Positions 14,401 through 63,500 are shown, counted from the first letter of the stretch. The stretch is DNA of 64,000 nt from Mobula hypostoma (GCF_963921235.1 NC_086108.1:26724001-26788000), one strand, 5' to 3'. Translations and numbers: made by a program. The notes: generated from the sequence alone by a model not told the origin.

Positions 14401-14819
14401 TGTCACAAAAGTAAAATTCAAAGCACTGGAGATTAGGCAGGAAGTGGCTGGTTAAACCAGTTAATTGAGTTGGAGAGCTACTTAAAGCAAGGTTGGGAGC
14501 CTTTAGTTTGTGAAGATATGGCTACAAAGTGGAAAGTTTGGTTAGGGTTAAAATGAGAACCACAGTAGGGAACCAAAGCGAGGACAGAGGAGAGGGTCAA
14601 ATCCATTACATTCTCCATTTCTTTCAAGGAAGCCAAGAAATCCCCTACAGATCCCACTCGCAGAGATTAAACTCTCCCTGTGCACAGGACAATGCTGGTA
14701 GGCAATCCAAGAACATCTCCCCAGGCAACCCTTGGGCTTTACTATTGTCCTGTCACTTCCTGCAGAGTACCTCTGGCCTTGTTAATCGATTAGTGAGCAA
14801 GCTTCTGAACATTTTTGAG

Positions 14820-40400: not shown

Positions 40401-41729
40401 CATTTTCCCTATTATTGATGTCAGCTACTTCATCACACACATGTCCACATTTATTCTTGCTTATTCTCACTTTCACTTTCACTCAAACTGTGGGATTATT
40501 TTTGCTGTCTTTTAATTTATCCAATTGAACTTGGAAGGAGACAACTGGCATCCATTATTTGCCTAGAAATCTCTGTCATAAACTTGGGATTAATCAACTT
40601 TCTTCCTATTAATTCATCTAACACTATTTAATATTTATGCCAGAAGAACTCAGCAGGCCAGGCAGCATCTATGGAAAAGAGTACAATCGACGTTTCAGGC
40701 TGAAACCCTTTGGCAGGACTGAAAGGAAAGGTTTAGACTTCTTCAAGGTAGGCATCCCTGGAAGAGACTTCATGGTGTAGTACTCCAATCACAAACAAGA
40801 GAAATCTGCAGATGCTGGAAATCCGAACAACACAAAAAATGCTGGACGAATTCAGCATGCCAAGCAGTATCCATGGAAAAGAGTAACAGTCGATGTTTCA
40901 GGCCAAAACCCTTCAGCAAGACAGGACTGTGTGTGTTACTTGGATTTCCAGCATCTGCAAATTTTCCCTTGTTAATACCTAACCTGATTTCTTTGGACCT
41001 GCTGTCCACCATTGAATGTGAACACAGCATAGAAGGGTTGAATTTGATCTTTATTTGTAATATAAGCCACCAGAACTAGCATTCAACAATGCACCACATT
41101 TGATAATATATTTCTGGGAGCTTTATTGATACAATACTGTAACCATTTCTTCATCCTGCTTCTAATGGGAAGGAGAGAGATTTGTGTAAGATCTGCAAGA
41201 ATCCCTGAAGAAGCAAGTATCACAGGGTACATGGTAGATCAAAAATTGGCTAGCATCTTGATTAAAAAGCACAGCACTTCACACTCTGCCAGTTGCTTTG
41301 GACTAGCAGAGCTATTAATAGCTTGCTGTACTTTTGCACAATTCAACCATGTTCAGGCAGAGCAGAAAGGAACCAAATAAAAGAAAACAAACTGTATATG
41401 TTTAAGTCATCTGAACAGTGAGCATGTTTGTGACTCAGCAAAGGGAGCTTTAAGAAGTCTCTTGTCTTTAAATCATGTCAGAGATGTCAAAGTTAAGTTT
41501 ATTGTCATATGCACAAGTAGACTTATGCACAGGTTGAGTGAAAATCTTACTTATAGCAGCATCAGATACAAAACATTCAAAAGAAGAAAATCAATTAACC
41601 ACTTTTACATAAAGAACACAGTTAAAACAAAGATAAATCAAGACCATTGTAGTACAAATTGGTCATTGTGTTTCTATACTGAAGTAATGATTGAAATTGT
41701 GCAGGTTGGTTCAAGAACCAAATGGCTAC

Positions 41730-42499: not shown

Positions 42500-44503
42500 G
42501 TATTGAAGATTACTTGTATTTCTTTACTTTAATCAGGCTCTTTGCATTGATATTTAATTTTCAAATCACACCAAGCTTAAATGATGAAATTTTCCCTTCT
42601 GTATCAACTAATTATTTCAAAATTTTCTTGACTAATCATTGATACTGTCGTTTATCTAGTTCATATGACTGTATGAGATAGACCAACAATTAAAGATACA
42701 CAACATTTACATCAATATGGAGTTGAGAGAGGTTGAAAGTGGGGGAGTGGGGGAGGGAGCGTTACGCTAGTGTAAGAAGGTTTCCGTGTAATGGATGATA
42801 ACCTTTGGTAGTGTTAATATTATTCCACATTGGCAAAGACATCTGACAATCAGGAGTAATCGTTCCATTCCCTTTTCGACAGAGCCTTTACTGTGGACTT
42901 CATGGAATATACTCGGGGGGCATTGCATGTGCCTAGGGCTAGACATTTTAAGATTTCATCCCAAACACCAATGAAACACAACACAAGCCATGAGAGGTTG
43001 TGTAAGGAAGAATGTACTTGAAGAGTACGTGCTCCAAAGGTGAGAAATAAGGGTGTTACTGTGCAAATAGTTGACCTGAATTCATTAAAGTGTTGAAGTG
43101 GAGCAAGATGGTTTAGCCAAGAATTGTGATGGATATTCACATCTTGCTCATCTTTGCTGAGCTTGCAAACTTAACTTGTATTTCTAAACACGTTTGAAAG
43201 GTCACAAACAGATATAGGTATATTTCTAACTTTATTGCTTTGTTTGTTTGGTTATAAAAGAAAATCAGTCTTCAGTTCTTAAAATGTAAGTGGAGCAGTA
43301 ATCAATTTGAAGTTAAAAAGCATTCTATGGAACAGCTTTGCAAATAAGCTATGCATTTTGAAGACACATTCTGTGTGAAAGTCAATGTCAGTAAATGCAC
43401 TTGCTTTATTTTTGTTCAAAAGTAAAGTATAAGACAATGAGTTGTTTAATCTAGACAGTTTAAACAGACTCTTGAGTTGCTTAGTTCAAGGAAGCTTGCA
43501 GAACAGATGGATAATATCATTTAGCATATTAGCATATCCATAACTGATATATTTATAGTTGGAATGGTTTTATGTATTCAGAAGTTGGCTTTACTGCATT
43601 AATTGTGGAACTATGTCTTCAAAAGAGTTTTTAAACAGTTTGTGTTAAAAGGTAATCTGAGGAAATATCACAAACAAGAGAAAATCTGCAGATGCTAGAA
43701 ATCAGAGCAACACACATAAAATGCTGAACGAACTCAGCAGGCCAGGCAGCATCTAAGAAAAGCGTACAGTCGGTGTTTTGGGCTGAAACCCTTCGGCAGC
43801 ATCTTTTCCTAGATGCTGCCGCCTGCCTGGCCTGCTGAGTTCGTCCAGCATTTTGTGTGTGTTGCTGAGGAAGTATCATATGTGTGTCACCCAAATGGGA
43901 GGAGATAGGATACAAATGTAAAGAACAGTAGAGGTTTAATAGGAATGTGGTAAGGAACATTAAGAAACATGGAAGAAACACTAGAATCCATTCCTCCAGC
44001 TTCTGATTCTGTGATGGATGATTAGTGTGCCTAAAACTCAAGGGGATGTGTTTTAGTTTATAGGAATTGTATAGGAAATCCCTTGTGTGTTGAACATGGT
44101 TTATATGGAAATCCTTTATCCTTTGTGTTTTGCGCTTTAGAAACAGTTTGTAATTTGGAAATACTTTATGAGATAAAAATTCTCTGTGTGTTTTAAATGA
44201 GTTTTAAAAGTGTTTGGATTTAAACGTGTATCACTGAAAATGAATGAACTATGTTTTGAACTAATTGTTAGCTGAAAGTATCTTCTCCTTGGTAGGGAGA
44301 GAGGACCCACCACTCAAATAGTAGGTATTGGCAGTTATACACACCATGCAGAATAAACTGGGAAGTAAACTGTTCCTTGGAGATTGGCTAGGTACAGTAT
44401 AATCTCACTTTAGTGAAGTATTTGAAGCTATTTATATCCAATAAGGCTTAAGGTCTTTGTTTGAGTTTGGAACTTTGTGGTCAGCAAACCCAATACCATC
44501 ACA
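42500..44503 (+). repeat. 5' LTR of the foamy-like provirus (contains a Penelope-type palindrome at ~43669-43865)
   Basis: Collinear with ~60200-62845 (shared AAATGATGAAATTTTCC, CTAGGGCTAGACATTTTAAGATTTCA, AAAGAAAATCAGTCTTCAGTTCTTAAAATGTAA); ends CCAATACCATCACA. Confidence 0.82.
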
Positions 44504-44505
44504 GT

Positions 44506-44523
44506 TGGCTCCCACTGTAGGCA
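44506..44523 (+). promoter_or_regulatory. Degenerate primer-binding site, tRNA-Lys1,2-like
   Basis: TGGCTCCCACTGTAGGC, 2 nt after the LTR-terminal CA; foamy consensus is TGGCGCCCAACGTGGGGC. Confidence 0.55.
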
Positions 44524-44600
44524 CCTTATACTAAAAGTATTATTTTAGAAATAATTGTTATTTAGCAGCAGTTGAACTCAGAGAGTTCTCAAAAAGTGTG

Positions 44601-45600
44601 ATGGCACCTTACCCAGTACTATAAACTGTTCAACATCCTGGTTTCCAGCAGTGGCACAGGCAAATACTAGTTGATATTATGAATGTGTTAATAGTATAGC
44701 AGAAATATGGGATAATATCCCAACTGCTCCTCAAATTGAACATGATGAATATTTTATTCTTGAAGTAAGATACTGGAATATGCAATGGGCTGGGTTGACC
44801 AGACCCAAACAGTTCGGGTGTCCAGGAGATGTGGTAATAAGTATATAACACAACAAAGCAACACGCCTAATTCATTATCATAAAATAGAAAGTACAAATA
44901 AACCACACAAAATACAACATAGTAAGTTATAAAGATTTCCACAAAGATTTCAGAGCTCACAATTCTTAGTCTCCATTTGATTGCTGCTGTCTTCGTGGTA
45001 GTTGATTGCTGCTGTTGTCAGGGGATCTCTGAATTCCAACTTGTGAAATCTTACTGGGTCTCCTTGGCACTGATCGTGATTCTTTGGTCTAGGTGAAGTT
45101 CCAAGAACCAAGGGAAAGGTGCCCCAATAAATAGGGGTTCCCAGATCACAGAGAGGCACACGGAGACAGACAAACTCTTTGATTTTTTCCTGTTCTCATG
45201 CCACTAGCTCAGCATGATTTCTTTAGGAATTCCACAAGTGTTGAGAGACAGGCAAAGGCAGATAACCTCAGTGGTCTTTTGTTCACATGCTTTTGGTGCC
45301 TGTGCCAGGAAAGAATCCAGCCACTCTCAGCAAACATTAGACATTAATAAACCTATAGTGTTTAACATGTAAAGACATCTTGCATGCTGCAAGCTCACAA
45401 AGAGTTAAAGTATCCTTTGGAGCTGTTCAGGCTTTCATCCAATATTTTACAAAATTGAATACATCACCACACAGAATGATGAAGGGATAGAATGTAAAGT
45501 CGGATTCAGATCAGACAGACCAAACACCATGTATGACCTGCTGAACTTAGAATATCACAATTTGTACCAGATTCCAACAATGCAGCAATAAATCTTGCCT
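44601..45600 (+). pseudogene. gag: Foamy-like gag, decayed
   Basis: NIPTAPQIEHDEYFILEVRYW at ~44714 (cf. PFV NIPRNPLHGEVIGLRLTEGW); LGEVPRTKGKVPQ*I at ~45089 (cf. TGEPPRNPREIPIWL); no CCHC knuckle seen. Confidence 0.65.
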
Positions 45601-45740
45601 GGAGGTAACAAATTGTCTCCTTTTTAGGTAAAAACCTAGCACCCTGGAGGGGACCACATGCTTATGTGATAGGACTTGGTGAACCATACATAATTCCGAT
45701 GCATGGGGATATTGTGTATTACATGTTTCAGGCACACATT

Positions 45741-45840
45741 AGGTAGTCCCCTTACCAGTAAACACTCCAGGTATTAATGAATCCCGGAGTGAGGTAGCCC
45801 CCTTACCAGTAAACACTCGAGGTATTAATGAATCCCGGAG
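45741..45840. repeat. Two-copy tandem duplication (51-bp period) in an unclassified, probably LTR-like insert (~45710-46295)
   Basis: AGGTAG(T/C)CCCCTTACCAGTAAACACTC(C/G)AGGTATTAATGAATCCCGGAG twice. Confidence 0.85.
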
Positions 45841-46399
45841 AACAGATGCCTGGGAAAATGCAAAGGAATTACTGAAAAGTGACCGTAGTCAATAAAAGAA
45901 TAACACAGGGACAGGTTCCTGCTCAGAAGTCTCAGCAGCTTCACTAGTACAAGCCACTCATCAGATTTTAGGATCTTTGACAATTCAGAGTTTGCAGGCA
46001 GAATGAGCTGGTGCTGAAGGAATTCTGAAGCTATTACTTCAGAATGCCGGGAGGTTACCGTGCTTCTGGGCCACTTGTACTCCACAACATAGTCAGCAAC
46101 TCTTATTAATGTTACCTCCCACAGTCTTGGTGGCACCTCCACACGAGTGTGGAAATCCATATTCTTATAGAAACACCTGCATGATGCTAAGCTAGGGCAC
46201 ATCATCAATGATGTTACCTGGGGTCATCAGGTGTTTCGGGTCTTTCAACATCATACACCCTCGCCCGGAAAATAAATGACACAGATGTACGGGGGAGACA
46301 TCATACTGTATTCAGTAAAATAGTCAAAAGGTGGGGATAAGAACGGCCTATATCAGAGAAGAAATGGGAAGGGCAGACTGGGAGCTAGCTCATTCTATA

Positions 46400-49015
46400 C
46401 TGTCCCCCCTGTATCCCAGTGTGTGGAACAGCCCTTAATCAACACCTGATCAGCAACTTCAGGATGTTAGAAATATCCTGTGCACCCACATGGTGGTAGC
46501 AGGTTTGCTGCTCATTCCTACAGAAGGGCAATAAGGTGGCAGCACATGGTCCTCATCAACCTGTCATCGTCCCAATGAACAGGGGCAGGCAGCCAAGTTT
46601 CAGCTTTCCAGGGAGTATAGTTAGTGACTGCTGTTGTTTTCAGGCTCAGTCTGCCAATTATTGTCTGCCACATTCCTTCAGGGAAAGTCTTGGTACTGAA
46701 TTGTAGGAGTCCTATTTTTGTACTACTATTAGTGATTTTGTCTTTGGACCAAGTCTGAGTCCATTCCAGACCTTACTTTGCACTTGGGTTCACCACCATC
46801 CATAGCACTCTGATTGCAGCACGATTGAGCCAACATGAACCTAGCAGAGTATAAATGTCTATGAACCACATTTGCCTACCAGAGAGCAACTGTAGGCAGA
46901 CATGACAATATGCTTCAGGAGATGCTCACCACTCTCCAGAAACTCTCCTACTCCAGTAGGCAGGATCCAAGTTTGGCCCATGTGGCTGCCAGTTCCGGCC
47001 AAGTTCAAGCTGGAGACGCAATGAGGGATCACTGCACCTACTGGCTCCCAAGTGGTGCGATGGTAACCCTGAAGTGCATCAAGGATTCCTGGTACAATGC
47101 TCCTTGGCCTTTGAGTTACAGCCAACCAAGTTCCCATTGGAACACAGTAAGGTAGCCTATATCGTCTTGTTCCATGCAGGAAGAGCTCTTGCCTGGTCCA
47201 CTGCACTCTGGGAGAAGGGTTCACTCATCACTGCCAGTGCAGACCTATTGTCAGACACTTTGAGGAAGGTATTCTATCACCCCACTGGAGGACATGGATC
47301 TGTGATAAAACTCCTCAACTTGTGCCAGGGGAATCAGTCTATGACCAATTATGCATCTTGGCCACAGAGAGCAGTTGGAATATGGAAGCACTAACTGCTC
47401 TAATCCATAATGGATTGAGTGATGAGCTAAAGGATGTCCTTGTGGCTCAAGACCCAGTGGAGGACCTAAAGAGTCGTATGGACCTGGCGATTTGATAACC
47501 GATTAACAGAAAGGAAAAGGGATAGATGAAGGGTATTATTCTGAAGAGACTCTTATCCCTGACTATCCTATGTCCTCTCCTATCTCCTGGGCTTAGGCTC
47601 CGCCTCAGCCACTGCTGATCCCAGTCTCCGAGGAGCCTATAAATATAGGCCAGACAAAGCTCTCTCAAGCTGAAAGAGAGAAGAGGGACTTACTGTAAAG
47701 AGGCCGGACATGATCAGATCTCTTGTCCCAAGCTGCTGGGAAACACTTGGGACTGTCCAATGAATGGAGGCCTGAGATGGCTGCTAGCATCACTCCCGGT
47801 TCAGCTCCCTCCAGCAAGATGCTTCCCTTCGCTTTCATGGAGAGACCAAAGACATTGCCTAGATGCACTGATTGACTCTGAAGCAGAAGGGAATTATTTG
47901 GGCCCCAGAATGGCCAGAAGATTAAAAATCTCCTTTTCGTTTCTCGGCCATTGATTCGTTGACAAGGCCTGGATGGGGGACCTTTAGTGTCAGGGCAGAT
48001 CAACCACCAAACATCCCTGCTCAAGCTCAAGACCAGCCAGCATGTGGAATCAATCCATCTCCATTCCATTCACTCCTCCAGAAAAGCCTCTCATTCTGGG
48101 TCATCCCTGGCTGTCATCCCACAATACGAGAGTTAATTGGACTACTGGGATTGTTCTGGGTTGGTCAAACCAGTGAAAAAAGAAATGCATCCAAAAGGAG
48201 CAGAAGACCTTCTAAGTTGCTATAGGAAATAGGGTTTACTTCTGAGACTACCACCGAGACTACTTCTGATATATTTCCTGAATTACCTGTTGAACCTTCC
48301 ACCTCTAACCCCATTGCATCCCATTTGTCTAGGGTACCTCCAGAATATTCATACCTACTGGAGGACTTCAGAAAAAGGCCACCATTCCACCAGCTCACCG
48401 GAACTACAACTGTGCCATTTATCTGATAATGGATATTTGTCCTCCTTGGAGACGGCATTATTCTCTAAGATTCCCAGAGAGGAAAGCCATGGAAGACTAG
48501 ATCCCAGAAGTTCTGGCATCTGGGTTTATTCAGCCATCCACATTTCCCATTTGGGCCTGGTTTTTGTCACCAAGAAGGATGGAGGACTAAGGCCTTGTAT
48601 TCTACAGGAAGCTACATAAGATCACTGTTAAAAATTGGTACCTCCCCTCTCACATGAACATGGCCTTTGAGATTCTCCAGGGTGCTACAATATTTATCAA
48701 ATTGGGTCTCCGTAGTGCCTACAACCTAATTCACATTCGTGAGGGAGACAAATGGAAAATGGCATTCAACACACTTACGGGCCACTACGAACACCGGGTC
48801 ATGTTTTTCGGGTTGGCAAAAGCTCCAGTGATATTTCAAGCCTTCATCATTGATGTGCTCTGGGAGATGCTTTCCATCTAGATGATATACTCATTTTCTC
48901 GTGGTCCACTCAAGAACACATCAACAAGACTGGCAGATTCGACAACAGCTTCTCAAGAATCAACTATTTCATCAATCTCGAAGAGTGAATTCCATGTATC
49001 CATAGTCTCCTTCTG
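46400..49015 (+). mobile_element. 3'-truncated Tf2/sushi-like Gypsy element nested in the provirus
   Basis: gag SKVAYIV..GRALAWSTALWE, protease [52 protein letters not shown] and LDDILIFS. Confidence 0.9.
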
Positions 49016-49641
49016 TGGAACGTCTTAAACATCCACTTCCTCTCCTGCAGTTCAGAGAAAACAAAAGGTAAAGAAGGGGACAGGCTAACGTTATGGTTAT
49101 AAAAATTGCACAAGGGAATTTCCATAACAGCTCTGATCAAAGTGTTCTATCTAATGAATAGGGTTATTACTCTAGATTTTCCATATGCCAATGCTCATAC
49201 TTTTGGCAAAATTTGACCCTGCCATTTTGATACAGCAACAGACATACAACAGGTGCTGCAGGGATTGACTTGTAAAAGTATAAATCTTGCACAGATCTGG
49301 CTGATAGCTTCTGGTCATACCAACTTCTTGAAAGTGACAGACAGAGGCTATGCAATTGACATTAAAAATGTTCTGCTTTGCTGTACTGAAGTAAAATTTC
49401 ATAGGTATGACAATTACCAATCAGGGACATGGTCTAACCCCTGAATTTAGACAAAAAAAATCACTTGATTAGGATATCCAATTATCATAAAAGCCTTCCA
49501 ATCAACCATAGAACTATTGAATTGTGGTAGAGCTTTCATACCTTACTAGGCTCAGTGTTAAAACCATTGCACAACAGATGTAATCCAAAAAATGCAAAGA
49601 CTTGTTTTTATCCCAGAAGGCTGAGGTACTAGTTGTAAAGT

Positions 49642-51439
49642 GTTGGCGAATGGCCAAGTGGTTAAGGCGTCGGTCTAGTGATCTGAAGGTCACTAGTTCA
49701 AGCCTCAGCTGAGGCAGCGTGTTGCGTCCTTGAGCAAGGCACTTAACCACACATTGCTCTGCGACGACACCGGTACCAAGCTATATCGGCCCTAGTGTTC
49801 CTCCCTTGGACAACATCGGTGGCATGGAGAGTAGTAGTAGTAGTAGTCATACTTTATTGACCCCGGGAGAAATTGGTTTTCGTTACAGTTATATCATAAA
49901 TAATAAATAGTAATAGAACCATAAATAGTTAAATAATAATATGTAAATTTGCCAGTAAATTATGAAATAAGTCCAGGACCAGCCTACCGGCACAGGGTGT
50001 CTGACCCTCCAAGGGAAGGGTTGTAAAGTTTGATGGCCACAGGCAGGAATGACTTCCTATGACTCTCTGTGCTGCATCTTGGAGGAATGAGTCTCTGGCT
50101 GAATGTACTCCTGTGTCCACCCAGTACATTATATAGTGGATGGGAGACACTGACCAAGATGGCATGCAACTTAGACAGCATCCTCTTTTCAGACACCACC
50201 GTGAGAGAGTCCAGTTCCATCCCCACAACATCATTGGCCTTACAAATAAGTTTGTTGATTCTGTTGGTGTCTGCTACCCTCAGCCTGCTGCCCCAGCACA
50301 CAACAGCAAACATGATAGCATTGGCCACCACAGACTCGTAGAACATCCTCAGCATCGTCTGGTAGATGTTAAAGGACCTCAGTCTCCTCAGGAAATAGAG
50401 ACGGCTCTGACCCTTCTTGTAGACAACCTCAGTGTTCTTTGACCAATCCAGTTTATTGTCAATTCGTATCCTCAGGTATTTGTAATCCTCCACCATGTCC
50501 TGGATGGAAACAGAGGTCACCGGTACCTTAGCTCTACTCAGGTCTACCACCAGCTCCGTAGTCTTTTTCACATTAAGCTGCAGATAATTCTGCTCACACC
50601 ATGTGACAAAGTTTCCTACCGTAGCCCTGTACTCAGCCTCATCTCCCTTGCTGATGCATCCAACTATGGCAGAGTCATCCGAAAACTTCTGAAGATGACA
50701 AGACTCTGTGCAGTAGTTGAAGTCCGAGGTGTAAATGGTGAAGAGAAAGGGAGACAAGACAGTCCCCTGTGGAACCCCAGTGCTGCTGATCACTGTCGAA
50801 CACACAGTGTTGCAAGCACACATACTGTGATCTGCCAGTCAGGTAATCAAGAAACCATGACACCAGGAAAGCATCCACCTGCATCGCTGTCAGCTTCTTC
50901 CCCAGCAGAGCAGGACGGATGGTGTTGAACGCACTGGAGAAGTCAAAAAACATGACCCTCACAGTGCTCGCTGGCTTGTCCAGGTGGGCGTAGACACGGT
51001 TCAGCAGGAAGATGATGGCATCCTCAACTCCTGGTCGGGGCTGGTAGGCGAACTGGAGGGGATCTAAGTGTGGCCTGACCATAGGCTGGAGCAGCTCCAG
51101 AACAAGTCTCTCCAGGGTCTCCATGATGTGGGAGGTCAATGCCACCGGTCTGTCGTCATTGAGGCCGCTGGGGCGCGGTATCTTCAGCACAGGGACGAGG
51201 CAGGACGTTTTCCACAGTACAGGAACCCTACGGAGCCTCAGGCTCAAGTTGAATACATGGCAAAGTACTCCACATAGCTGAGGGGCACAGGCTTTGAGCA
51301 CCCTGGTACTGACACCGTCCGGTCTTGTAGCCTGAGAGTGGAAGCTTGCAGCCATCCATATAACTTTGCCCAGGCCTGCGCCCTGGAATCCATTCAAGGC
51401 ACAAATCCATGGTCTCACAAGACTAACAGATGCCTATAA
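49642..51439 (+). mobile_element. tRNA-derived SINE split by a Rex LINE
   Basis: A box TGGCCAAGTGG and B box AGTTCAAGCC at ~49651-49705; body appears to resume at ~51340. Confidence 0.7.
49833..51333 (-). mobile_element. 5'-truncated Rex1/Babar-type LINE
   Basis: FFDFSSAFNTI, GVPQGTVLSP, KFSDDSAIVG; (CTA)n tail; probable TSD GAGAGT at 49827-49832 and 51334-51339. Confidence 0.92.
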
Positions 51440-51719
51440 GAGGCACTAGGGAACTTGATGGATGCAGTTTAGCAAGCAATAGGGTTCCAGATAAGATACT
51501 TAACAAAATCTCTTGTTCAGAGAATTTGTGTTTCTCCAAGAACCGCTGTAGCCATCTGCTCTAAAGAGGCAGAAAAAACACAAGCCCCCATACACTATAC
51601 CTCATATAATTTCACCCCAACAGAACAGAAATTTACTGCTTTACAACTATGCTTTACTATGATATTCTGTACACTTATTGCAGTAAGACTGCAAGGAGGC
51701 AAACCAAATATTGCACAAA

Positions 51720-53832
51720 CGATACACTACCTTGTACTTGCCTCTTTACCTATTCCTCTGGCTTGTCCTTAACCCATGACAGAGTGAAGAGCAGGAACTG
51801 CCCTGAACATATTATCTTTGATCGTCTCCCTTTCCTAGTTCTGCTCACTAATGTTGTGTATGGGTATGCATGTTGCTTGCCACAGCTTGAGGGAGGTTGG
51901 AATTTGTCTGTCATGAATAATTGGTCTAATAACACAAACTCACGGAAAGATGGGGTGATAAACATGATTTTTCACTCAACTATTCGGCTGTTGCAGATTT
52001 ACTTTTTCATATGGGTAACTTTTTATATATACAGTTCTTAAGGTTTTCTATATAGTGTAGATATGTTGCGCATTGCTAATGATAGCATTGTATCAGCATC
52101 AGTATCAAGTTTAATATCACTGGCATATGTGATGAAATTTGTTGTTGATATTAAAGCTGATTCTTATTCTGTCATGGTTTACACCTTTGACTTTTAAAAC
52201 CATCTATCTTACAATATTTACTCTGTTATGTTACACAGTGCTAAAACACAAGGAGTAAAGAGATATCTACCCCGAGGAGCAAGATAGCCATCCCTGAGGA
52301 ATGCTATACTCCCAATAGTCTTTTTTACCTATTCTGCTGTGATTTCTTCAGAAACAAAGATGTGATCCTAAGGCCTCTGAGACTGATAAAGCACTATATT
52401 GTCACAAGGTAGAGCTGTCTGAATGTGTTTCACTTACTATTTGGGTATAAGTATATATTGTGTAGGTGGTTCTTCTACAGTGCAGCAAATAGGACCACGA
52501 GACCTACCAATATTGGTATTTGGGTTGAACTTAATAGTTTGTATATTTAGTTGTATATTTGGTTGACAAAATCCCATGGTCTAACAGAACAGACTGAGTA
52601 GCCTTGCTATGTTAAAGTTCTCTTTGAAAACATAGAAGTTAGAAAGATGTGTCAATTCTTCACAGTTAGACTCAATCCCTATCAAAGGAAACCTTGAACA
52701 ATTGTGCACAGAGTTCAGAATCACATATGCAGGTGGTATGGTTGTTGTTAGACTGTTACACGCAGGCTTCAGTTCTTTGCGGGAATCGAACCCCTTCTCG
52801 GGGATCCACGATAGGTCGCTGTTCAACATGTCAAGAGTTTGGCCTGAGAATCTCGATCGTGTTTGGAAGCCTAAGATCTCAGGGCTTTGGAGACGGGCGG
52901 ATTGATGGTTGGTGTCACGGCAGGAGACTCGTGTGTCGTCGGGGAGGCTGGAAAATCTTTCACTGTGGGCCCGAAGACCCGAGGTCTTTGTGATCTTTGG
53001 ACACAGAGCTGGATAAAAGCGACGAAACAGACTTTTAGGATTGTAAACCAGTGGGTTGCTGTTATGTCTCCCGCTCGCTGTGAAAATGGGGGACACCTCC
53101 CTCTCCCTTGCCAGGGAGAGAGAGAATCTGTCGTTTGTCGAATTTTGGATGCAATTGTCACTTTTGCACAGTAACTCATTTTATTGCACATGTTAAGTAC
53201 AGCAAACTAATACACAAAGACATGGCAAAAGTCAAGGCAAACAAATGAGGTAACAGCAAATTTCACTTTTGCCCAGTAACAAGCCTTATTGCATTTAGTT
53301 GTAGCTGTCGTCCCTTTCATCGATGAAGAGACTATGGCTGTGGGAAATGTTTCTGGACAAACGCACACCAAGTCTTTCGTTTGGCAATTTCCTTTTAAGT
53401 TTTTTCTTGTCTGTAACTGGACAAACGTGCACCAAGTATACCATTTCCTCTTCGCTTGTTTTCTGTGTGTCCTGCGCATGTCCAGTAGGAGGAGATTCAC
53501 CCAAATATCCATTTTAATGTGGACAGGAGTATTTTCAAAAACGCCTAGTGTGGACGCCTGTCATTTTTACGCGAGACTGGCATTTTCAAAATTATCCGGT
53601 CTAGTGTGGACGTAGCCTGAGATGTCTGCGCAGGAATGAACACAATTAACATGCCATTTTATGAAAGTGACAGTAATTAACTCTTGGTTTGACAGTGTTG
53701 GAGGGAAGATCCAGGCATTTGAACAAGACATGTAAGTCAAAAGAAGCATCATGAGGGCATTGTAACTATAGAAATTTTCCTGTTACATTTGTTTCTTAAC
53801 ATATAAAAACTTGCTGTAATGTTGGGTTGGGG

Positions 53833-53867
<35 letters not shown>

Positions 53868-54383
53868 CTCTCTCGACATATAAGTGACTTCAAAAGGCTG
53901 TCAGATTATTTGTGTGTGCAATGAATAAAAGTCTGCTTTATATCTCCGAGCTGTGTCTCTCCGGTGACTCTGTTCCCATTACAACACTGCTACCAGAGGA
54001 TGACTGGCCTTTTTTAAAATTTATAGAGAAATGACACTTGGAATAATCTGATGATTTAATCTATGTTGCTTATTTTAAGACTAGAATGCAAATCCAGTTT
54101 TTGGATACAACAAAGAATGTTCCAGAAGGACTTAATATTCTTCACCAATGGCTAGAAGGAACTCGGTCAAATTTAAGGAATATTTATTTATTCATGCTGA
54201 GACACTGAACTAACACATTGAGATGAGCAAGGCAGCTCCTTTCACAAGGCTCTTCTTCATGGTGATACAAGGCTTTTGACGGACTTAACCCTCCAGCTGG
54301 AGCAATAGCTACGATTTTTCCAGCTGTTGCATATTTAGCTTCCACAACAGCGAATTCAGTTTCGGGTGGATTAGCACTACTGT
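51720..54383 (+). pseudogene. env: Foamy-like env, copy A (interrupted at ~52754-53986)
   Basis: VFHLLFGYKYILCRWF (~52424), LFENIEVRKMC (~52620) and LLHGDT...GAIATIFPAVAYLASTTANSVSGG (~54250-54375). Confidence 0.75.
52754..53986. mobile_element. Composite LTR-like insert containing a Harbinger-like MITE end
   Basis: TGTTACA start, AATAAA and ACAACA end; CTAGTGTGGACGTAGCC terminus at ~53601-53617; (CT)n at ~53835; absent from env copy B. Confidence 0.55.
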
Positions 54384-54519
54384 AGCAAACAAGAGAAAAT
54401 CTGCCTATGCTGGAAATCCAAGCAACACACACAAAATGCTGAAAGAACTCAGCAGGCCAGGCAGCATCTATGGAAAAGAGTATAGTTGACATTTCAGGCT
54501 AAGCCCCTTCAGTCCTGCA

Positions 54520-56340
54520 CCTTGGGTCTGTCATAAGTAATTGGTCTAATAGCACTAACCCATGGAAGGATGAGTTGATAAACATTATTTTTCACTCACC
54601 TCTTTGGATGTTGCGTATTTAATTTTGGGGCCTCCAAGGTTTAGAAAATATTACTGTATATCGTCACTAGAACTGTTTGAATGTGTTTTGCTTACTATTT
54701 GGGTAAAGTATACATTGTAAACAATGTACAAAGTATACATTGGTAAAGTATGTGATACTCCTACAATGCAACAAATAGGACCACTTGGCCTATCAGTATT
54801 GCTACTTAATGTTACAAGGATAGTTTGTATATTTGTTTGATAAAAATCCATTGTCTGATAGAACAGACTGAGTAGTCCTGCTTTGTTAAACTTTTCTGGG
54901 AAAACATGAAAGTTAGGAAGATGTGTCAATTCTTCTCAGTTAGAGCTAATCCTTAACAAAGGGGGAAAACCTGAACAATTCTACATAGAGTTCAGGATCA
55001 TTAAAAGGGTAAGGAACTTATGGTTGATGTCAGAATGTTAAGTTACACCATACCAGACATACTGTAACCAGAGGATCACCTGTTGTATATTTCAAGGCAG
55101 GATGCAAGTCCAATCTTTGGGTGCAACAAAGAATATCTAAGAAGGACTTGATATTCTTCAACTTCCGGTTTCAGATGGTGCCACCAAATGTGTGCGACAT
55201 CTCACTGGCAATTGTAAAGGCAAGAAATTTGACTAAAAACATTACAAATAACACTTTTCCTGAAGTAAGTTGAGGTAAATTGTCACCACAAACAATGAAT
55301 TTGAGGGAGGAACCATGCTGCTACGTGACAGAATTGACGCAAATGGAATAAGCCATTTGTAAAGAGAAGCGAAGGCAGAGGAGTTTCGGCTTCTGTACAG
55401 CTGGCCTGGGTACAAGGTTGGATTGCTATGGGTGGTGTGCCGATTTGGAGAAATTGAGAGTGGCTTTGGGATGAGTGGTGATATCTGGGCCCACAGCAAA
55501 TAACAGGGTAGAATGGTGTAAGCCCAGAACCTTTCACTGCAGTGGTGTTCATGTTCGGACCCTAGTGAGAGGTAAAACACACTGTTTGGACAATATTTAT
55601 GCTGGATCAGATAGACTGGAAGTACAGGGTGTCAGGATTGGAGGCGAGAGCCAATTTTGCTTGCTGTCTGTGATGTTCACTCCTTTCTCCATGGCACAGA
55701 GGATATGCTGTGCTCCATGCTGCTAATATGATGAACTGATACTGAGGCTTTGTACTGCCTCCAGCCTGCCCGGGCTTCAGATCTAAGGACTGGTTTTGGT
55801 TTGGAATGTCATTGCTCGCTTCTGTTGTTTGCAAGATTTGTGTTTTGATTCCCTTTCTCTGCGCGTCTGGTGTTGGTCTTTTTTTTATTAGTTTTTTTTT
55901 TGCATTTCTAGCTTTGTGGCTGCCTGTAAGCAAACAAATCTCAAGGTTGTATAATTTATACATTCTTTGATAAACAATGTACTTTGAAACAATGGCAAGA
56001 AGAAACTCAGTCAAATTACAAGAACATTTCTCTATACATTCTAAGAGTCACTGAACTGGTATAATCAGATGAGTGAGGCAAAAGTTTCTTTTTCATATTC
56101 ATGCTCAGCCCCTGACTGGATTAAAACTCTAGCTACAACAATAGCTGAGACCTTTCCAGCTGTTGCATATTTAGCTTCTGCAGCAGGGAATACAGTTTCT
56201 GGGTGAATTGGCACTACTTTAAATTGGGTAGAAGATTTTTTTTTGGTTTCCAATGTACATTTTCCCTAGCCATTGGAATTATTGTTTTTGTAGTGCTCTT
56301 TTTGCTGAAATGTTGAAGCCTGCAAGGATGGAAGTTTGGA
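54520..56340 (+). pseudogene. env: Foamy-like env, copy B (interrupted at ~55163-55990)
   Basis: LFWENMKVRKMC (~54891); DWIKTLATTIAETFPAVAYLASAAGNTVSG at 56114 (cf. PFV AWIQQLAAATKDVWPAAASALQGIGNFLSG); membrane anchor LAIGIIVFVVLFLLKC at 56266. Confidence 0.8.
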
Positions 56341-57069
56341 GAACTTTGCCTTTTTTTATAACGGCTCCACTCTTAAGGCTCTGTGAACTCCCATACCTAA
56401 CCTGTAGTGTAATGGGTTACGTCTCCTATGACAGCCTTGCTATCTCCCGCCTTATTACCTATTCCTCTGATTCATCCTCAACCCTGGAAGAGCGAAGTGT
56501 GGGGATTGCTCCGACCATATTATCATTGCTCCTCTCCCTTTCCAAGTCATGATCACTAACCTTGCATATGGGTATACATATTTCTCAACCCCTTGGGGGA
56601 CGTTGTGATGTGTCTGTAATGAATGAAGTGTTGACAAACATTATTTTTTACTTACCTATTTGGATGTTGCAAATCTATTTTATAACATAGGTTGTAATAA
56701 GCCCATCAGGACTGTGCAGAAAGCTGAAGAACAGTGGGTTCCAAGGTTTTTAGAGCAGCTGAATTGGTGAATTGTTGTTTAATGAAAGTTGTTAATCCTC
56801 CCTGGTGCTTCTATTTAAGCTTGTTAAATTTATTTTTACAGCCTCGGGAATTCCGTGTTACCTGTGTTATTTAAGCGGACAGTCTATTAGTACTACTGCG
56901 GAGTCTTATTTTTGAGAATATTACATCTCAATGTGTTGCTTGCCCTAGCCATCTATGTGGTAGCTCTTATGAAGAAACCCTGGTTGCCGGCTCCACATGG
57001 AAGTCTGTCTTTCCTTTACATTTGTGTCTCGTCATTGCCAGTGCACTTTGTGACATGGGTAACTTTGTA

Positions 57070-57102
<33 letters not shown>

Positions 57103-57619
57103 GCGATTCTTAAGATTATATAAGTGGACTTTGTAAACCTGTTCTTCACTGTTAATGCTGGTTTTAAACCACAGTACTGCAAAGCCTTAGGCTCTCTAGG
57201 TATTTTTTTATGGTTCCAGATGGTATGGCCACATGGATCCCTGATCTCAAATCATCAAAGCTATCTGGGATTCACCTTGACAGTCACAAGCAAGCGAGAA
57301 AGGCAATGTCTGCAGAAGAAGCATATAACAATTACAGCACGGAAACAGGCCATCTCGGCCCTTCTAGTCCATGCGGAACTCTTACCCTATCCTAGTCCCA
57401 CCGATCTGCACTCAGCCCATAACCCTCCATTCCTTTCCTGTCCATATATCTGTCCAATTTAACTTTAAGCGACAACATAGAACCTGCCTCAACCACTTCT
57501 GCTGGGTGCTCATTCCACACAGCCACCACTCTGAGTAAAGACATTCCCCCTCATGTTACCCCTAAACTTTTGTCCGCTAATTCTCAACCCATGTCCTCTT
57601 GTTTGCATTTTCTCCACTC

Positions 57620-57875
57620 TGGAAGAACTGTGGAATGTTCTCCAATATGCTTGGAACAAACTACCAGTTGGTTTTCTTATAAAACTGCATGACAGTATTC
57701 CTAAGAGAATTAATGCACTTTTAAACTCAAAGGGTGGATATACCAAATATTAATTTGATTTAATTTTAAAGTAATTTTTTTAATATTTAGAAACTTTTCA
57801 TTTGATTATTTTTGAAAGCATCTTTGCTTTGCAGATTTTTTTTACATATGCCTAAGACTTTTGCACAAAACTGTA
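57620..57875 (+). mobile_element. Tc1-like transposon 3' end, preceded by a minus-strand CR1 3' fragment (~57320-57620)
   Basis: IPKRINALLNSKGGYTKY* and terminal CCTAAGACTTTTGCACAAAACTG-TA. Confidence 0.8.
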
Positions 57876-58205
57876 TTATAGTTCATATTTTTATATTCAA
57901 ACTATCTATCTTGCTATATTTTGTGTGTTATGTAATGTAATGGTGAAAAACCAATGAGGAGGAGAAAGATAGCTACCCTTGAGGAATGATATTCTCCTGA
58001 TAACCTTCTTACTTAGAGTGTTGTGATTTCTTTGGAAATGGAGATGTAAGCTGAGGGCCTCCAAGGTCTACAAAGCATTATATTTTCACAAGGTAGAACT
58101 GTTTGAATATGTTCCACTTACTATTTGGGTATAAGAATATATTCCATAAGTGGTACTCCTACAATGCAACAAATAGGACCACTAGGCCTATCAGTATTGC
58201 TATTA

Positions 58206-59965
58206 GGACATAGAAGAGTATAGCACAGGAACAGGCCATTCAACCCAAAGCATTGTCCTGAACCAACTAAAAAGCAAATCAAAAACACCCAAATTCTAAT
58301 CCCTCCTACCTACACCATATCTATATCCCTCCATCTTCCTTAAATCCATATACCTATCCAAATGTCTCTTAAAAGCCTCCAATGTATTTGCCTCTACACG
58401 GCATCCATGACACTCTGAGTAAAACATTTACTCCTCACATCCCCCTTGAACCTACAACCTCACATCTTTGGTATTAGACACTTCACCTATTCCTGCTCCT
58501 TTCTCAGCAAAGTTTCAGTATTGCTACAACTTTGTAGTTCCATGTACTGATCCGTGCCTTGTTCATCACCCTTACTCATAATGCTCCAAGCGTTAAAACA
58601 TACACACTTTTAACTCTCCGATGTATCATACCTGTAATTTCAATTTTGTCTTTCAATACTTATCCTGACCTTTTGGTCCGATCCTTCCTAGCCCCCTGCA
58701 AAATGAGTTTAAACTCTCCCAAGTAGCATCAGCAAACCTCCCGGCCAGGATATTGGTTCCCCTCCAGTTCATGTGCAACCCGTCCCTCTTGTACAGGTCA
58801 TGCTTTCTCCAGAAAAGATGATCTAAAAACTTGAAACACTGTTCTGTGCACCATCTCTGCAGTCACTCATTCATCTGTGCTGTCATCCCATTCCTACCTA
58901 CTCTACCCCACAGCACAGGGTTAATCCGGAGATTACAACCTCGGGGGTCCTTCTCTTCAGCCTCTTTCCTAACTCTATATACTCACTGCATAGGACCTCT
59001 TCCCCGTTTCTGCCTATGACATTGGTGCCAATATGCACCACAACCTCTGGCGGCTCCACCTCCCATGAGAAAATCCTGCAGCTGCTCTAATACATCCTGG
59101 ACCCTGGCACATGGAAGACAACACACCATCCTGGTGTGTCTTTTGCAGCCACAGAATCTTCTTTCTGTCTGCCTATGTATTGAGTCCCCTATCACTACCG
59201 TACTGCCTGACTTTACTCTTCCCTGTCAAGCCTCAGAGCTGGCCACAGTGCTACCAGCCTGGCAGCTGCTGCAGTAATCTAATGGGTCATCCCCCCCTGT
59301 AGTACCTGTTGGGACATTGCTGAGGGGAATGTCCACAGGGGACCCTACTCTGACTTCTTAATCCCCTTACCTCTCCTGGTGGTTACCCATCTACTGTCCA
59401 AAGCCTGTACTCTGGGTGTGTCCAACTCTTCAAAAGTCCCGTGTATCATATCTTCAGCCTCCTGAATGATCCTGAGGACATCCATCTCCTTGACCTGATC
59501 AGTCAGTCGCTGAAGTTGGAGGCATTTCCCACAGACGTAGTCATCAGGCAAACTGTCGGGTGTCCTGAATCCCCGTATCTGACAGGAAAAGCCTTCCATC
59601 CTGACTACTCAATAGCAAAAAAGAAAAAAAATATTTGCTTCTTCTTAACTGTGCCTTTGCCTTTTCATGCTGAAGCTTATTAAGCCAAAACCTTCACACT
59701 CGATCATTGGCACACTCCGATAATGGCCGTTCCAACAATTGCTGCTCCACTTGAGCCTCCCCTTCTTAAATTTGCAGCTAAGGTTAGGTCTCTGGCACTG
59801 ACATTTCCCAAAAGACTGGCTTTGCACAAATCTGCTCCTTTTATCCTCTCTCTCTTAAACATCCATGGGGTTACACCAAAACACATTCCTCTCACCCAAG
59901 CCACTAAGGAAATATTGCCTTTACCCGAGTTTACTCTTTTTAGACTTGCATTCCTTACTTAATAA
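58206..59965 (-). mobile_element. Internally deleted CR1-family element (ORF1 plus 3' end)
   Basis: PDDYVCGKCLQLQRL and esterase-like IGDSI...MVCCLPCARVQDV; CR1 3' end at ~58210-58480. Confidence 0.75.
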
Positions 59966-60199
59966 TACTTTTTGTTGCAAAGATATTTTGTATATTTGGT
60001 TGATGAAATTCCATGATCTGACAGAACAGACTAGGTAGCCTTTGCACAGTTAACATTTTCTGGAAAAACGTTCAGATTGGTATCACAATTTTAAGTTGTA
60101 TCAATGGGTGTTCACTCCCATAGGGGACATAATCAACCCCAATGTTGTGACATCTTTTTTTCTGTGAGCTTAGAATTAAAAGTACAGACTGAATCTCAG

Positions 60200-62845
60200 C
60201 AAAGGAATTGTACTCTTTCTTACTTTGAAAATCTTAATTTTTATGTATATAATTATATTGTGAAATCATGTCGCTGATGGATATAATTTTCTAGAATTAA
60301 AATGATGAAATTTTCCTTCTGTATCAACCAATTATTTCAAAATTGCTTTTCACTAATCTAATGTCCTTTATTTAGTTCATATGGCTTAGTGTGAGATAAA
60401 CCAAGAATTATAGCTGCAGCATTTGCACCATCATGAGAGAAGTTGAAGGAGGGGCTTTATGCAAAATAGTGTTGGAAATTTCAGTGTAATGGATGATACT
60501 CTTTGGTAGTGCTGCACAGACAATGTCATGGTCCCGACCGTTAATTCTCCATTTTCTCCTAATTCCCCATTTTCTCCTAATTCCCTTTTTGATTGTGCCA
60601 TGGTCCCAACCGTTAATTCCCCATTTTCTCCTAATTCCCTTTTTGATTGTGTCATGGTCCCGACCGTTAATTACCCATTTTATCCTAATTTGCTTTGATG
60701 GTGGCACACCTGGTTTTCATCAAGACCTGCATAAGAACCCCAGCTTTGTACCCACTAGTTGCCAGATCGTTGCTTTCCCAGTGTGGCCCGGCTACTTAGG
60801 ATTGTGTATTCTAAGTTTTGCTTCAGTACCGAGACTTACCTGTGAAACTCAGTCTCTTCGTGTCAAGATAAGTATTCTAAATCTTACTTCCGCACTGAGG
60901 TTTACCTGTGTAACTCCATCTCTCCATGCTAAGAAAAGTTTTGTCTGCCACTTTCCTTTCTACACTCTGTGTCAAGATAAGTTCTGCCTGCCTCCTGCTT
61001 TCCTGCACTCCCTCCTGTTTGCCATTCAACATTCACACCCACATCTGCATCCTAACTTAATCTCCGTGCCTGTGTTCTGCGTTTGGGTTCGCCTCCTTTG
61101 TTGCAACAGGCAAAGATATCTGGCAATCAGGAGCAATCATTACATTCCCTTTGGACAGAGCCTTTGCTGTGAAACTCATGGAAAATACACTGGGACATTG
61201 CGTGTGTGCGTCTAGGGCTAGACATTTTAAGATTTCAACCCAAACACCAATAGAACACAGCACTAGCCATGAGAGGTTGAGTAAGGAAGTGTGTGCTTGA
61301 AGTGTGCATGCTTTAAAGGTGGAATAGGAAGGTGCTGCTGTGCAAATGGTTGACATGAATTCATAGAAGTGTTGATGTGGAGCAAAGTGTTAAAAGCGTG
61401 AATTGTAATGGATATTCACTTCTTGCTAATGTTTGCTAAGCTTTCTTTCTAAACACAAGCAGCCACCATTTGAAAGATCACAAACAGTTGTAAGTGAACT
61501 TCTAAATATATTGCTTTGCTTAGTTTCTGGTTGTAAAAGAAAATCAGTCTTCAGTTCTTAAAATGTAACTGGAAAGCAGTAATCAGCTTGGAGTTAAGAA
61601 AGCACTTGCTATAGTACAGCTTTGCAAACAACCTATGCATTTTGAAGACAGTCTACCTGTGACAAAGCAGACTCAAATCACTGCATCTGCTTTATTATTG
61701 TTTAAATGTAGAGTACAAGACAATGGATTGTTCAATTTAGGCTCTTTCAAACAGACAAGTAGACTCTAAAGTTGCTTAGTTCAAGGAAGCTAGCAGAACA
61801 GTTGGATAATATCATTTAGCATATCAATAATATAGAGAGCAGTTAAGGCTTATTAAGAATGGGGTAAGGAACATCAGGAAAGTTGGAAGAAACACAATGT
61901 GAACAAGAATCTATTCCTCCAACTTAGGTTTCTTCAATGCACAATTTGATTGTCTGAAACTTGAGGGTATGTCTTTTTAGTTGATTGGAATTGTACCTGT
62001 GTTTTAGAAATCCATTGTGTTGCAAATGGTTGATATAGAAATCCTTTGTCATTTGTGCTTTATGCTTAATGGTTTGTAATTTGGAAATATTTATAAGTGA
62101 GAGATCCTCTGTGAGATTTACAAGTGTTTTAAGAGTGTTGTTTGGATTTAAACGTATAACACTGAAAATAAATAAACTGCATTTTAAACTATTTTGTGAG
62201 CTGTTGGTATCTTCCTATTGGTAGTGAGAAGGGAACCATCACTTGAATAATGGATATTGGCAACTAAGTTCACTGTAGAGAATACATATAGAAGCAAGCT
62301 AGCTTTTGGAGATTGGGTAGTTAAAGTATAATCTCCCTTTAGTGAGAGTGCTCATGGCTATTTTATTATCAGAGAGTGCTTGATTACTTTGTTTAGAAAT
62401 TTGTGTACTACGGTTGTGCAGCAATTACCATGATGTATTTCAGCATGGGGTCCACTTGCTCCACTTCAACTCTTTTATGAATTCAAGTCAACCATTTGCA
62501 CAGCAGCACCTTCCTAATCCACCTTTAGAGCATACGCGCTTCAAGCACACACTATTTCAGCATGCAGAGTTTGGAGTTCAATCCTGGCATCCTCTGCAAG
62601 GAGTTTGTATGTCTCCCCTGTGGAACATGTGGGTTTTCTCCAGGTCCACCATCCACCCCCTGCCCTCCAATGTCCAAAGACATACCGGTTAGTAGGTTAA
62701 TTGGTCATTGTAAATTGTTCTGTGATTAGGGTAGGGTTAAACCTCGAGTTTGGCAGGTAGCACAGCTCAAAGGGCCAGAAGGGCCTATTCCACGATGCAT
62801 TTCTAAATAAATACATGAAATATAAAGAAAGCCAATACCACCACA
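60200..62845 (+). repeat. 3' LTR of the foamy-like provirus (with solo LTR and SINE insertions)
   Basis: Collinear with the 5' LTR; ends CCAATACCACCACA at 62845; AATAAA at ~62168. Confidence 0.82.
60524..61108 (+). mobile_element. Solo LTR with internal tandem repeats, inserted in the 3' LTR
   Basis: TG...CA ends; near-TSD GACAA/GGCAA; absent from the 5' LTR; TG(T/C)CATGGTCCC(G/A)ACCGTTAATT three times at 60524-60690. Confidence 0.8.
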
Positions 62846-63164
62846 GAATGATTTGAATCAGAACATGTAATCCAAACCATTTCCTGGATTGGTTTCAGTT
62901 GCTTGAGAGCCATGGAGGTTTTCTCTTTACAGTTCAGAGATTTTGTCAGTTTATTTCTCAAGATATTTTGTGTATGCATGTCTTAGAGCCATTGAGTTTG
63001 GCCTACCAAGACTGCAATGATTAGTAAGAGCTTCCACTTATGCATGTCCTGCACTAATCATTTTATTCTCCCTACATTTCCATCAACCCCTCAGTTATAC
63101 TCACCAACATTACTCATTGACAGGAGAAGGGAGTAGGCAGCATGGAATTACCTCATCAACCAAG

Positions 63165-63500
63165 AAACACAGGGAGGTCTGCAGATGCTGGAAATCCAAA
63201 GCAACACAAACTTGGAACTCAGCAGGTCAGCATCAATGGAAATGGCTAAACAGTCAACGTTTTGGGCCAGGACCCTTCTTCAGTACTGGAAAGGAAGGGA
63301 GAAGACACCAGAATAAAAAGATGAGGGGAGGGAGGGTAGGTAAAGTCAGGTGGATAGGAAAGATAAAGGTCGAGAGGGGAAGGAATCTGACTGGACAGGA
63401 GAATGGACCACAGCAGAGAGGGAAAAAATTACTGGAAGGAGAAATCAATATTCATACCATCAGGTTAGAGGCTATCCAGATGGAATATAAGGTGTTGCTC
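63165..63500. mobile_element. Penelope-like terminal fragment
   Basis: Same family as 10635-11482, ~40620-40970, 43669-43865 and 54385-54515; decayed hammerhead core on the minus strand. Confidence 0.6.

Follow-up and report, generated by a model that had tools for sequence, protein, structure and literature searches.

The interval from 42582 to 62845 of a 64,000-nt stretch of the Mobula hypostoma genome (GCF_963921235.1 NC_086108.1:26724001-26788000; hereafter the window, with positions counted from its first letter) is very probably a single provirus, dead and of great age, that belongs to a foamy-like endogenous retrovirus (ERV) family related to spumaretroviruses, as judged by comparison of its sequence with genome copies, solved structures and protein collections. 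We refer to this family, which has long terminal repeats (LTRs), as Family A. That an old foamy-like ERV lay hidden here under nested transposable elements had been proposed in a preliminary description of the window, and the proposal is supported by searches of PDB, of a protein library and of Pfam and by a reverse transcriptase (RT) tree, more weakly for the window's own pieces. The provirus has no remaining coding capacity, and if it has a role today, this could only be a regulatory or a structural one.

Boundaries of the provirus and separation of two families

Self-comparison of the window revealed three direct-repeat blocks that are colinear between the 5' and 3' LTR: 42579-42813 pairs with 60300-60511 (73%), 42832-43529 with 61109-61824 (79.1%, E 8e-168) and 43915-44416 with 61829-62345 (72.7%, E 2.5e-79). 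Both LTRs open with TG (42582 and 60303) and close on a common 19-nt block, 17/19 identical, ...CCAATACCA(T/C)CACA, whose last base is 44503 or 62845. The two diverged direct repeats of the preliminary description, ending in ...CCA(T/C)CACA, are thereby confirmed with their end coordinates exact. The pair shows 298 differences over 1400 aligned sites (166 transitions, 132 transversions), corresponding to p 0.213 and a Kimura two-parameter (K2P) distance of 0.254, and the LTR length without nested material is ~1.5-1.6 kb. The end of the 5' LTR is followed by GT and then by TGGCTCCCA..., a TGG-type putative primer site. This site, already noticed 2 nt after the first repeat, has a related counterpart at the equivalent place in 4/4 other Family A copies (5/5 with the window copy). 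Foamy viruses have next to U5 a primer binding site complementary to tRNA-Lys1,2 or, in some, tRNA-Asn, and the site here may be of the Lys1,2 type; ARAGORN found no tRNA gene in the window.

Over their length, the 320-nt flanks on the two sides (before 42582 and after 62845) are single-copy in the 3.48-Gb genome, the sole matches in the flank searches being short repeat pieces (query 2-100 and 202-248). The LTR repeats are therefore not prolonged outward as part of a segmental duplication, and the question raised earlier of whether they extend past 44503 and 62845 is answered by their stopping at unique flanks. Because the flanks are single-copy, they also provide no paralogous empty site for a test of target-site duplication (TSD) or of the empty site.

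Genome copies separated two families within the interval. Copies of the Gypsy piece (query 47038-49019) match the window solely between 46561 and 49013 (5/5), and since 46561-46820 recurs some kilobases downstream in 4/5 of them, it represents the short LTR of this second family, Family B. With the leader sequence as query, four Family A copies were found, colinear with the remainder of the interval. All four join window-equivalent 46553 to 49027 without the Gypsy piece and 44779 to 45474 without a ~695-bp repeat, while the three that cover the place join ~49620 to 51440 without a minus-strand long interspersed nuclear element (LINE). Because the genome copies separate the two, the long-LTR host element (Family A) can be seen to carry a nested, 3'-truncated Gypsy element (Family B). 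The best-looking gag-pol of the interval belongs to this different, nested element, which calls for caution in annotation. The features of the interval, from 5' to 3', are as follows.

42582..44503, plus strand: 5' LTR of Family A, TG...CA, pairing with 60303-62845; nested hairpin-like short repeat at ~43600-43879
44506..44523, plus strand: putative primer binding site, TGGCTCCCACTGTAGGCA, 2 nt 3' of the 5' LTR; TGG-type site at the equivalent place in other copies
44780..45474, no strand assigned: nested ~695-bp interspersed repeat in the leader; many genome matches are exactly query 361-1055, and other copies join 360 to 1055
45475..46553, plus strand: Gag remnant of Family A with stops and shifts; frame common to copies; 51-bp tandem duplication at 45741-45840
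46561..49019, plus strand: nested 3'-truncated Ty3/Gypsy element (Family B) with its own LTR at 46561-46820; absent from 4/4 Family A copies
47038..47492, plus strand: Family B gag, from tblastn with fish Gypsy polyproteins
49027..49630, plus strand: Family A pol, RT palm-to-thumb remnant with frameshifts and stops, including ...FIGMTITNQGHGLTPEFRQK; colinear with other Family A copies
49631..51439, minus strand: nested LINE (non-LTR retrotransposon) fragment between RT and connection domain; RVT_1 at E 1.7e-10 and 8e-8, ALKBH8_N at E 3e-11
51440..51718, plus strand: Family A pol, connection/RNase H-like remnant (...APIHYTSYNFTPTEQKF...); RT_RNaseH at E 0.02; pol ends at ~51718
51735..52724, plus strand: first partial post-env/3' internal copy, equivalent to 13918-14623 and 18899-19062 of copy C75b; joined directly to the truncated pol
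53986..55056, plus strand: second partial copy, env C-terminus and post-env, with a hairpin repeat at 54386-54512 and an env pre-membrane piece at 54266-54382
55988..56624, plus strand: third copy, part 1, with Env C-terminal remnant at 56045-56203, hydrophobic stretch at 56149-56313 and start of post-env
57874..58207, plus strand: third copy, part 2, post-env; unrelated repeats occupy 56625-57873
58208..59964, minus strand: nested LINE-like fragment with nucleotide similarity to repeats elsewhere; minus-strand open reading frames (ORFs) 58983-59225 and 59345-59608
59965..60302, plus strand: third copy, part 3, final internal stretch ahead of the 3' LTR; corresponds to C75b 18899-19328 and C5a 17526-17984
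60303..62845, plus strand: 3' LTR of Family A, pairing with the 5' LTR; extra material at 60512-61108 and ~62400-62825

Within the hairpin-like repeat region of the 5' LTR, copy C75b passes from window-equivalent 43600 to 43879 with just 68 nt between. In the 3' LTR, the extra material at 60512-61108 contains a tandem array of 54-bp units (60524-60698, 3-4 units, 82-96% alike), which has no counterpart in the 5' LTR, and that at ~62400-62825 includes an inverted LTR piece (62455-62553) and a tail like that of a short interspersed nuclear element. A further LTR fragment of Family A, with 79% identity to the 5' LTR, lies in the opposite orientation, on the minus strand, ~5.3-6.1 kb before the window start (G000:C50:26717903-26718670).

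Foamy-like coding remnants of Family A

Family A Pol ranks closest to that of foamy viruses. In PDB, a 122-aa RT frame of a family copy matched the foamy protease-reverse transcriptase (PR-RT) entries 7o0h, 7o24, 7o0g, 7kse and 7ksf at E 7e-18 to 6e-16; the next matches were the RTs of cauliflower mosaic virus (0.069), murine leukaemia virus (0.14-0.5), Ty3 (0.94) and HIV-1 (1.7), and foamy PR-RT outscores every other solved RT by ~50 bits. Among 1.84 billion representative proteins the frame found 16 matches at E<=1e-3, headed by the Pro-Pol of Feline foamy virus (FFV; P0075, E 1.2e-14, 38% identity) and by a 1687-aa retroviral Pol with RNase_H and integrase SH3 domain, with predicted proteins of Scyliorhinus torazame, Callorhinchus milii and Pleurodeles waltl next. 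The S. torazame gene model (P0077) carries a foamy-like RT fragment fused to a PRDM-type PR/SET domain and is probably an annotation chimera across an ERV remnant. An integrase zinc-domain piece of a family copy matched the integrase of prototype foamy virus (PFV) in 5/5 PDB matches (E 5e-4), and FFV Pol aligned colinearly on three Family A copies from residue 243 to ~1003, examples being residues 243-412 (E 1e-30) and 701-1003 (E 3e-16). An RT tree of 26 rows, with no orthoretrovirus or ERV-L among them, places Family A together with FFV and the shark and newt sequences in a clade of 10 rows (100/97).

The window's own pol pieces gave the same affinity at lower scores. The sole PDB matches of 49338-49499 are foamy PR-RT, residues 345-376 (E 0.32), as are those of 51473-51769, residues 456-521 (E 0.017). 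A profile of seven natural foamy-like Pols gave four colinear window matches, three in the RT region at 49276-49344, 49395-49457 and 49475-49543 (independent E 0.0048, 0.01 and 0.041) and one at 51488-51688 (6.7e-10, 35.2 bits), and did not match the nested Gypsy RT. The RT thumb peptide (49395-49457) and the connection peptide (51473-51769) singled out in the preliminary description are thus real and foamy-like. A concern voiced there, that the pol pieces at 49.0-49.6 and 51.4-51.7 kb might be Gypsy, is met by foamy PR-RT being their only PDB match; the Gypsy RT is a separate nested piece.

A Gag frame common to the copies spans 45.5-46.55 kb of the window, and ~45929-46350 corresponds to the foamy Gag central domain. 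The window's 45929-46165 is homologous to the Family A Gag frame (E 2.3e-11). The Pfam domain Gag_FV_central (PF20672) was matched by copy C5a at E 0.031, and its curated cut-off was passed genome-wide at three places (37.7, 35.8 and 30.1 bits), all of which are Family A Gag frame matches (E 3e-33, 2e-33 and 4e-12) each lying 1.1-3.2 kb upstream of a same-strand match of the Family A connection domain. A CCHC knuckle is absent from 5/5 Family A Gag regions, which is weak evidence since the copies are decayed, and no GR-rich runs were seen in them. Structure-based searches of the Gag frame were uninformative: ESM Atlas returned unrelated bacterial families with scores <=0.89, and AlphaFold2 with a 7-row alignment gave a mean pLDDT (predicted local distance difference test) of 42.8, too low for fold comparison. 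The earlier claim of a foamy-type Gag therefore stands for a remnant at ~45.5-46.55 kb, not for the place and peptide offered: the peptide LGEVPRTKGKVPQ (~45089-45133) is not Gag and lies inside the ~695-bp repeat that the other Family A copies lack.

Env-like remnants are fainter. The profile Foamy_virus_ENV (PF03408) was matched at E 0.0094 (profile 353-398) in 1/3 copies tested for that segment and at E 0.3 (profile 905-936 of 982) by window 56045-56203, which adjoins a hydrophobic stretch. Both matches are below the cut-off, though colinear; of the foamy Gag and Env Pfam families examined, the Gag central domain passes in three family copies and Foamy_virus_ENV does not. A further env copy, L048, runs into a LINE and gave no Env match. 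The surface and transmembrane Env motifs of the preliminary description thus come down to faint Env-like remnants, and most of env is missing. The joint 51718/51735 marks an internal deletion that took the RNase H C-terminus, the integrase and most of env (~4.4 kb in fuller copies), and the third of the env-tail/post-env copies listed above continues into the 3' LTR.

Family A copies have ~1.2 kb between the Env tail and the 3' LTR, with short similar frames common to all copies. One of these reads ...H(V/I)I(F/L)xPL(L/P)FLVL(L/I)TN(V/I)AYGY..., and they occur at 51735-52724, 54526-55056 and 56261-56624 plus 57874-58207 in the window and at L042:1581-1787 and L045:5922-6122 elsewhere. Foamy viruses express Pol from its own spliced mRNA, use an internal promoter and carry tas/bet-type accessory genes. 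The ~1.2-kb region gave no database match and no recognisable gene; it may be the remains of an accessory gene.

Nested elements, copy number and age

By its homologies and its distribution among copies, 46561-49019 is a Ty3/Gypsy (Metaviridae) LTR retrotransposon and not part of the provirus. Besides the gag placed by tblastn, for which Pfam on stop-to-stop frames gave a hint of DUF4939 (E 0.029 at 46960-47391), Family B shows a decayed CCHC knuckle at 47685, a protease with decayed DSEA (for DSGA) in ORF 47649-47951 as read by eye, protease homology at 47691-48170 from tblastn with fish Gypsy polyproteins, and an RT at 48325-49019 (RVT_1 E 2.5e-8 at 48591-48878). Ty3 RT was the best PDB match of this RT (4ol8, E 4.9e-12), with no retroviral RT among five matches. 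The RT has 73 relatives at E<=1e-3 among 432 candidates, the best of them 49-50% identical and the named ones being Gypsy/Tf2 polyproteins, many with chromodomains, and in the 26-row tree it groups with fish Gypsy (99/96). Gypsy gag, protease and RT map to 47038-49019 only; tblastn of nine fish polyproteins over 49000-60400 gave nothing below E 0.65.

The remaining insertions are of several kinds. The ~695-bp repeat, of unassigned class, has dozens of genome copies spanning exactly this unit. The LINE at 49832-50762 is 93% identical to a copy inside another Family A LTR (L039:3358-4300); its family is very abundant and much younger, and read depth over it is very high. Within the LINE-like fragment at 58208-59964, 58692-59200 matches repeats in two other loci; no frame had a Pfam match, and its identity as LINE ORF1 is a reading of the peptide only. 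The window contains at least six copies of a short hairpin-like interspersed repeat (11349-11482, 16288-16362, 40637-40922, 43671-43866, 54386-54512 and 63163-63338), two of them inside the provirus, and contigs from each of the four sequencing runs accumulate on this repeat. Read joints 42246/51061 and 43863/49640-49651 connect copies of common repeats and are uninformative on this locus.

Other retroelement remnants were seen outside the provirus. An LTR-retroelement remnant with an RT/RNase H-like stretch lies at 8584-9493 and an integrase stretch matching both fish Gypsy polyproteins and foamy-like Pol profiles at 19549-20311, in the area assigned to Gmr1 in the preliminary description; both are on the plus strand. 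A different retroelement sits on the minus strand within another Family A copy (L042:2971-4878), its integrase and RT 22-28% identical to foamy Pol (E 3e-19 and 4e-9).

Family A is abundant. Of 150 scored candidates for each of its connection, env and gag frames, 143-150 were genome matches at E<=1e-3, the first-look candidate counts being 215, 232 and 268, and the copy number in the genome is at least about 150. Most matches contain stops; some short ones do not.

Sequencing contigs from three other organisms cover junctions of this locus. Those of organism B are ~2% different; a 1059-nt contig spans the junction of 5' flank and LTR (20 differences), and further ones cross the junctions 45474, 46553/46561 and 49013/49027. 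For organism C, position 42582 is spanned by contigs of two runs. Organism D contigs are ~9% different (98 differences in 1051 letters, five contigs), and one spans the 51718/51735 deletion joint. The provirus, the nested Gypsy element and the internal deletion are therefore older than those splits. The LTR distance is ~2.5x the distance between the source genome and organism D. Taking one integration for both LTRs, and with the rate as the weak point, K2P 0.254 corresponds to ~250 million years at 0.5e-9, the rate that the main text of PMC10699275 assumes for cartilaginous fish, and to ~130 million years at 1e-9; at 2.2e-10, assumed in the main text of PMC4422223, it would give an implausible ~580 million years.

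From what is known of retroviruses, such a provirus would have arisen when a foamy-like virus infected the germ line, its RNA being reverse-transcribed from a tRNA primer bound directly 3' of U5 and the DNA integrating with identical LTRs; its relatives would have multiplied through reinfection or retrotransposition. Its decay is extensive: the LTRs now differ by K2P 0.25, no reading frame is intact, pol is truncated after the connection domain, the env-tail/post-env segment is triplicated, and a Ty3/Gypsy element, a LINE, the ~695-bp repeat and short hairpin repeats have been inserted.

Alternative readings and comparison with known foamy-like elements

Several observations weigh against a single foamy-like provirus. 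A 4-bp TSD is the expected mark of foamy-type integration, and none is present here, TAAA preceding the 5' LTR and GAAT following the 3' LTR; decay may be the cause. The LTR-LTR identity (~79%) is not above the identity to some other family copies (71-79%), and the env-tail/post-env segment is present three times, which therefore leaves room for a composite of several insertions. On the side of affinity, the strongest statistics come from other Family A copies and not from the window copy, the exclusion of orthoretroviruses and ERV-L rests on the PDB and protein-library rankings and not on the tree, and a word-index homology search with the RT frame gave 58 candidates and none at E<=1e-3. The foamy A9 protease (Spuma_A9PTase, PF03539) had no match among 24 scored genome candidates, a blank that does not prove absence, and no tblastn match to FFV Pol before residue 228 was found on the element's strand in any copy. 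PDB searches with the Gag frame, as a single frame and as a 7-row profile, gave no matches. Judged by sequence, Env homology to foamy viruses is faint: a genome-wide PF03408 search with a stricter first look found none, and PDB searches with the Env tail, as a single piece and as a 4-row profile, returned chance matches only (E 0.88).

The alternative with the most in its favour, though an unlikely one, is that the two LTRs derive from different integrations and the interval is a composite of at least two Family A insertions or fragments, nested, tandem or recombined, in which case the LTR distance would date no single event. The missing TSD, the three partial env-tail/post-env copies, an LTR-LTR identity within the inter-copy range and the other Family A LTR fragment ~6 kb before the window all fit such a history. 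However, among 40 scored genome matches the partner LTR alone shares the 5' 290 nt, the others starting at query >=220; the two repeats point the same way and end precisely where unique flanking sequence begins, Family A internal sequence continues to the start of the 3' LTR, and a 4-bp TSD would often be lost at such decay. It is considerably less probable that Family A belongs to some other deep retroviral lineage, either ERV-L-like (class III) or a basal clade as yet without a name, whose Pol merely looks like that of foamy viruses. A tree without orthoretroviruses and ERV-L, the lack of a foamy protease match and the faint Env homology would allow it, whereas the ~50-bit lead of foamy PR-RT over every other solved RT, an exogenous foamy virus as the best of 1.84 billion proteins and a foamy-specific Gag central domain above the Pfam cut-off in three copies speak for foamy affinity.

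That the whole interval is a long-LTR Ty3/Gypsy retrotransposon is very improbable. Its clearest gag-protease-RT is indeed Ty3/Gypsy, but that piece has its own short LTR, is absent from 4/4 other long-LTR copies and has 5/5 genome copies that match nothing else in the interval, while the flanking pol pieces are foamy-like; this reading was rejected once the genome copies had split the two families and the pol pieces had proved foamy-like. The idea that the repeats are an ordinary segmental duplication has nothing to offer beyond the existence of two diverged direct repeats and can hardly be entertained: the similarity ends at TG and CA, the repeat recurs across the genome as a family linked to retroviral genes, and the unique 320-nt flanks led to its rejection.

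Starting from the provirus reading, a further and more tentative proposal is that Family A represents a so far undescribed foamy-like lineage of rays whose entry into the germ line preceded the divergence of at least four sampled species; we regard this as possible, with somewhat less confidence than an even chance. If true, the window copy, with its distance of 0.25, would be among the oldest foamy-like proviruses still keeping both LTRs, and Family A would tie foamy Gag architecture to cartilaginous fish, because its Gag keeps the foamy central domain. It would also offer a dated orthologous insertion to calibrate deep foamy virus history. An insertion common to several species would give a host-calibrated minimum age, independent of uncertain shark mutation rates. 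Our literature search, of limited coverage and confined to main texts without supplements, found no paper on foamy-like ERVs of rays.

[quoted passage not shown] Family A adds to these an abundant (~150 or more copies), very old family with recognisable foamy Gag and Pol.

Against the Ty3/Gypsy elements of fish (chromovirus-type), the likeness is confined to Family B, whose RT shares 49-56% identity with 'Gypsy retrotransposon integrase-like' polyproteins of carp and catfish; unlike those, Family B is cut off after RT in the window and has no RNase H, integrase or chromodomain there. Exogenous foamy viruses provide the best matches for Family A RT, connection and integrase (FFV Pro-Pol; prototype and simian PR-RT 7o0h and 7o24; PFV integrase 3l2q) and have in common with it long LTRs, a foamy-type Gag central domain and no Cys-His box. 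They differ in that RT identity is 37-38%, Family A has no A9 protease match and faint Env matches, its ~1.2-kb post-env region matches no known accessory gene, and Family A is endogenous, multi-copy and dead.

Foamy-like ERVs of cartilaginous fish are already published, as the main texts of three papers show (PMC5512871, PMC10699275, PMC4422223). Aiewsakun and Katzourakis 2017 (PMC5512871) and Han 2015 (PMC4422223) describe CmiFLERV/CmiERV from Callorhinchus milii (elephant shark), which, like Family A, is a foamy-like Pol lineage that became endogenous in a cartilaginous fish. One of the 16 library matches of Family A RT, protein P0078, comes from C. milii and falls in the same 100/97 clade; it is 31% identical to the Family A RT frame. 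The main text of PMC4422223 gives LTR divergences of 0.033 and 0.024 for two complete CmiERV insertions, compared with 0.25 in the window provirus. Song et al. 2023 (PMC10699275) screened 12 chondrichthyans and, in their main text, report elements only for the small-spotted catshark, ERV-Spuma.0-Sca, with 293 elements classed by Pol similarity. Both this family and Family A are elasmobranch Spuma-type ERVs with many copies; no Gag or Env domains are reported there for ERV-Spuma.0-Sca, whereas the Gag central domain exceeds the Pfam cut-off in three Family A copies. The window provirus is thus not a new kind of element but a good further example of fossils already known from sharks.

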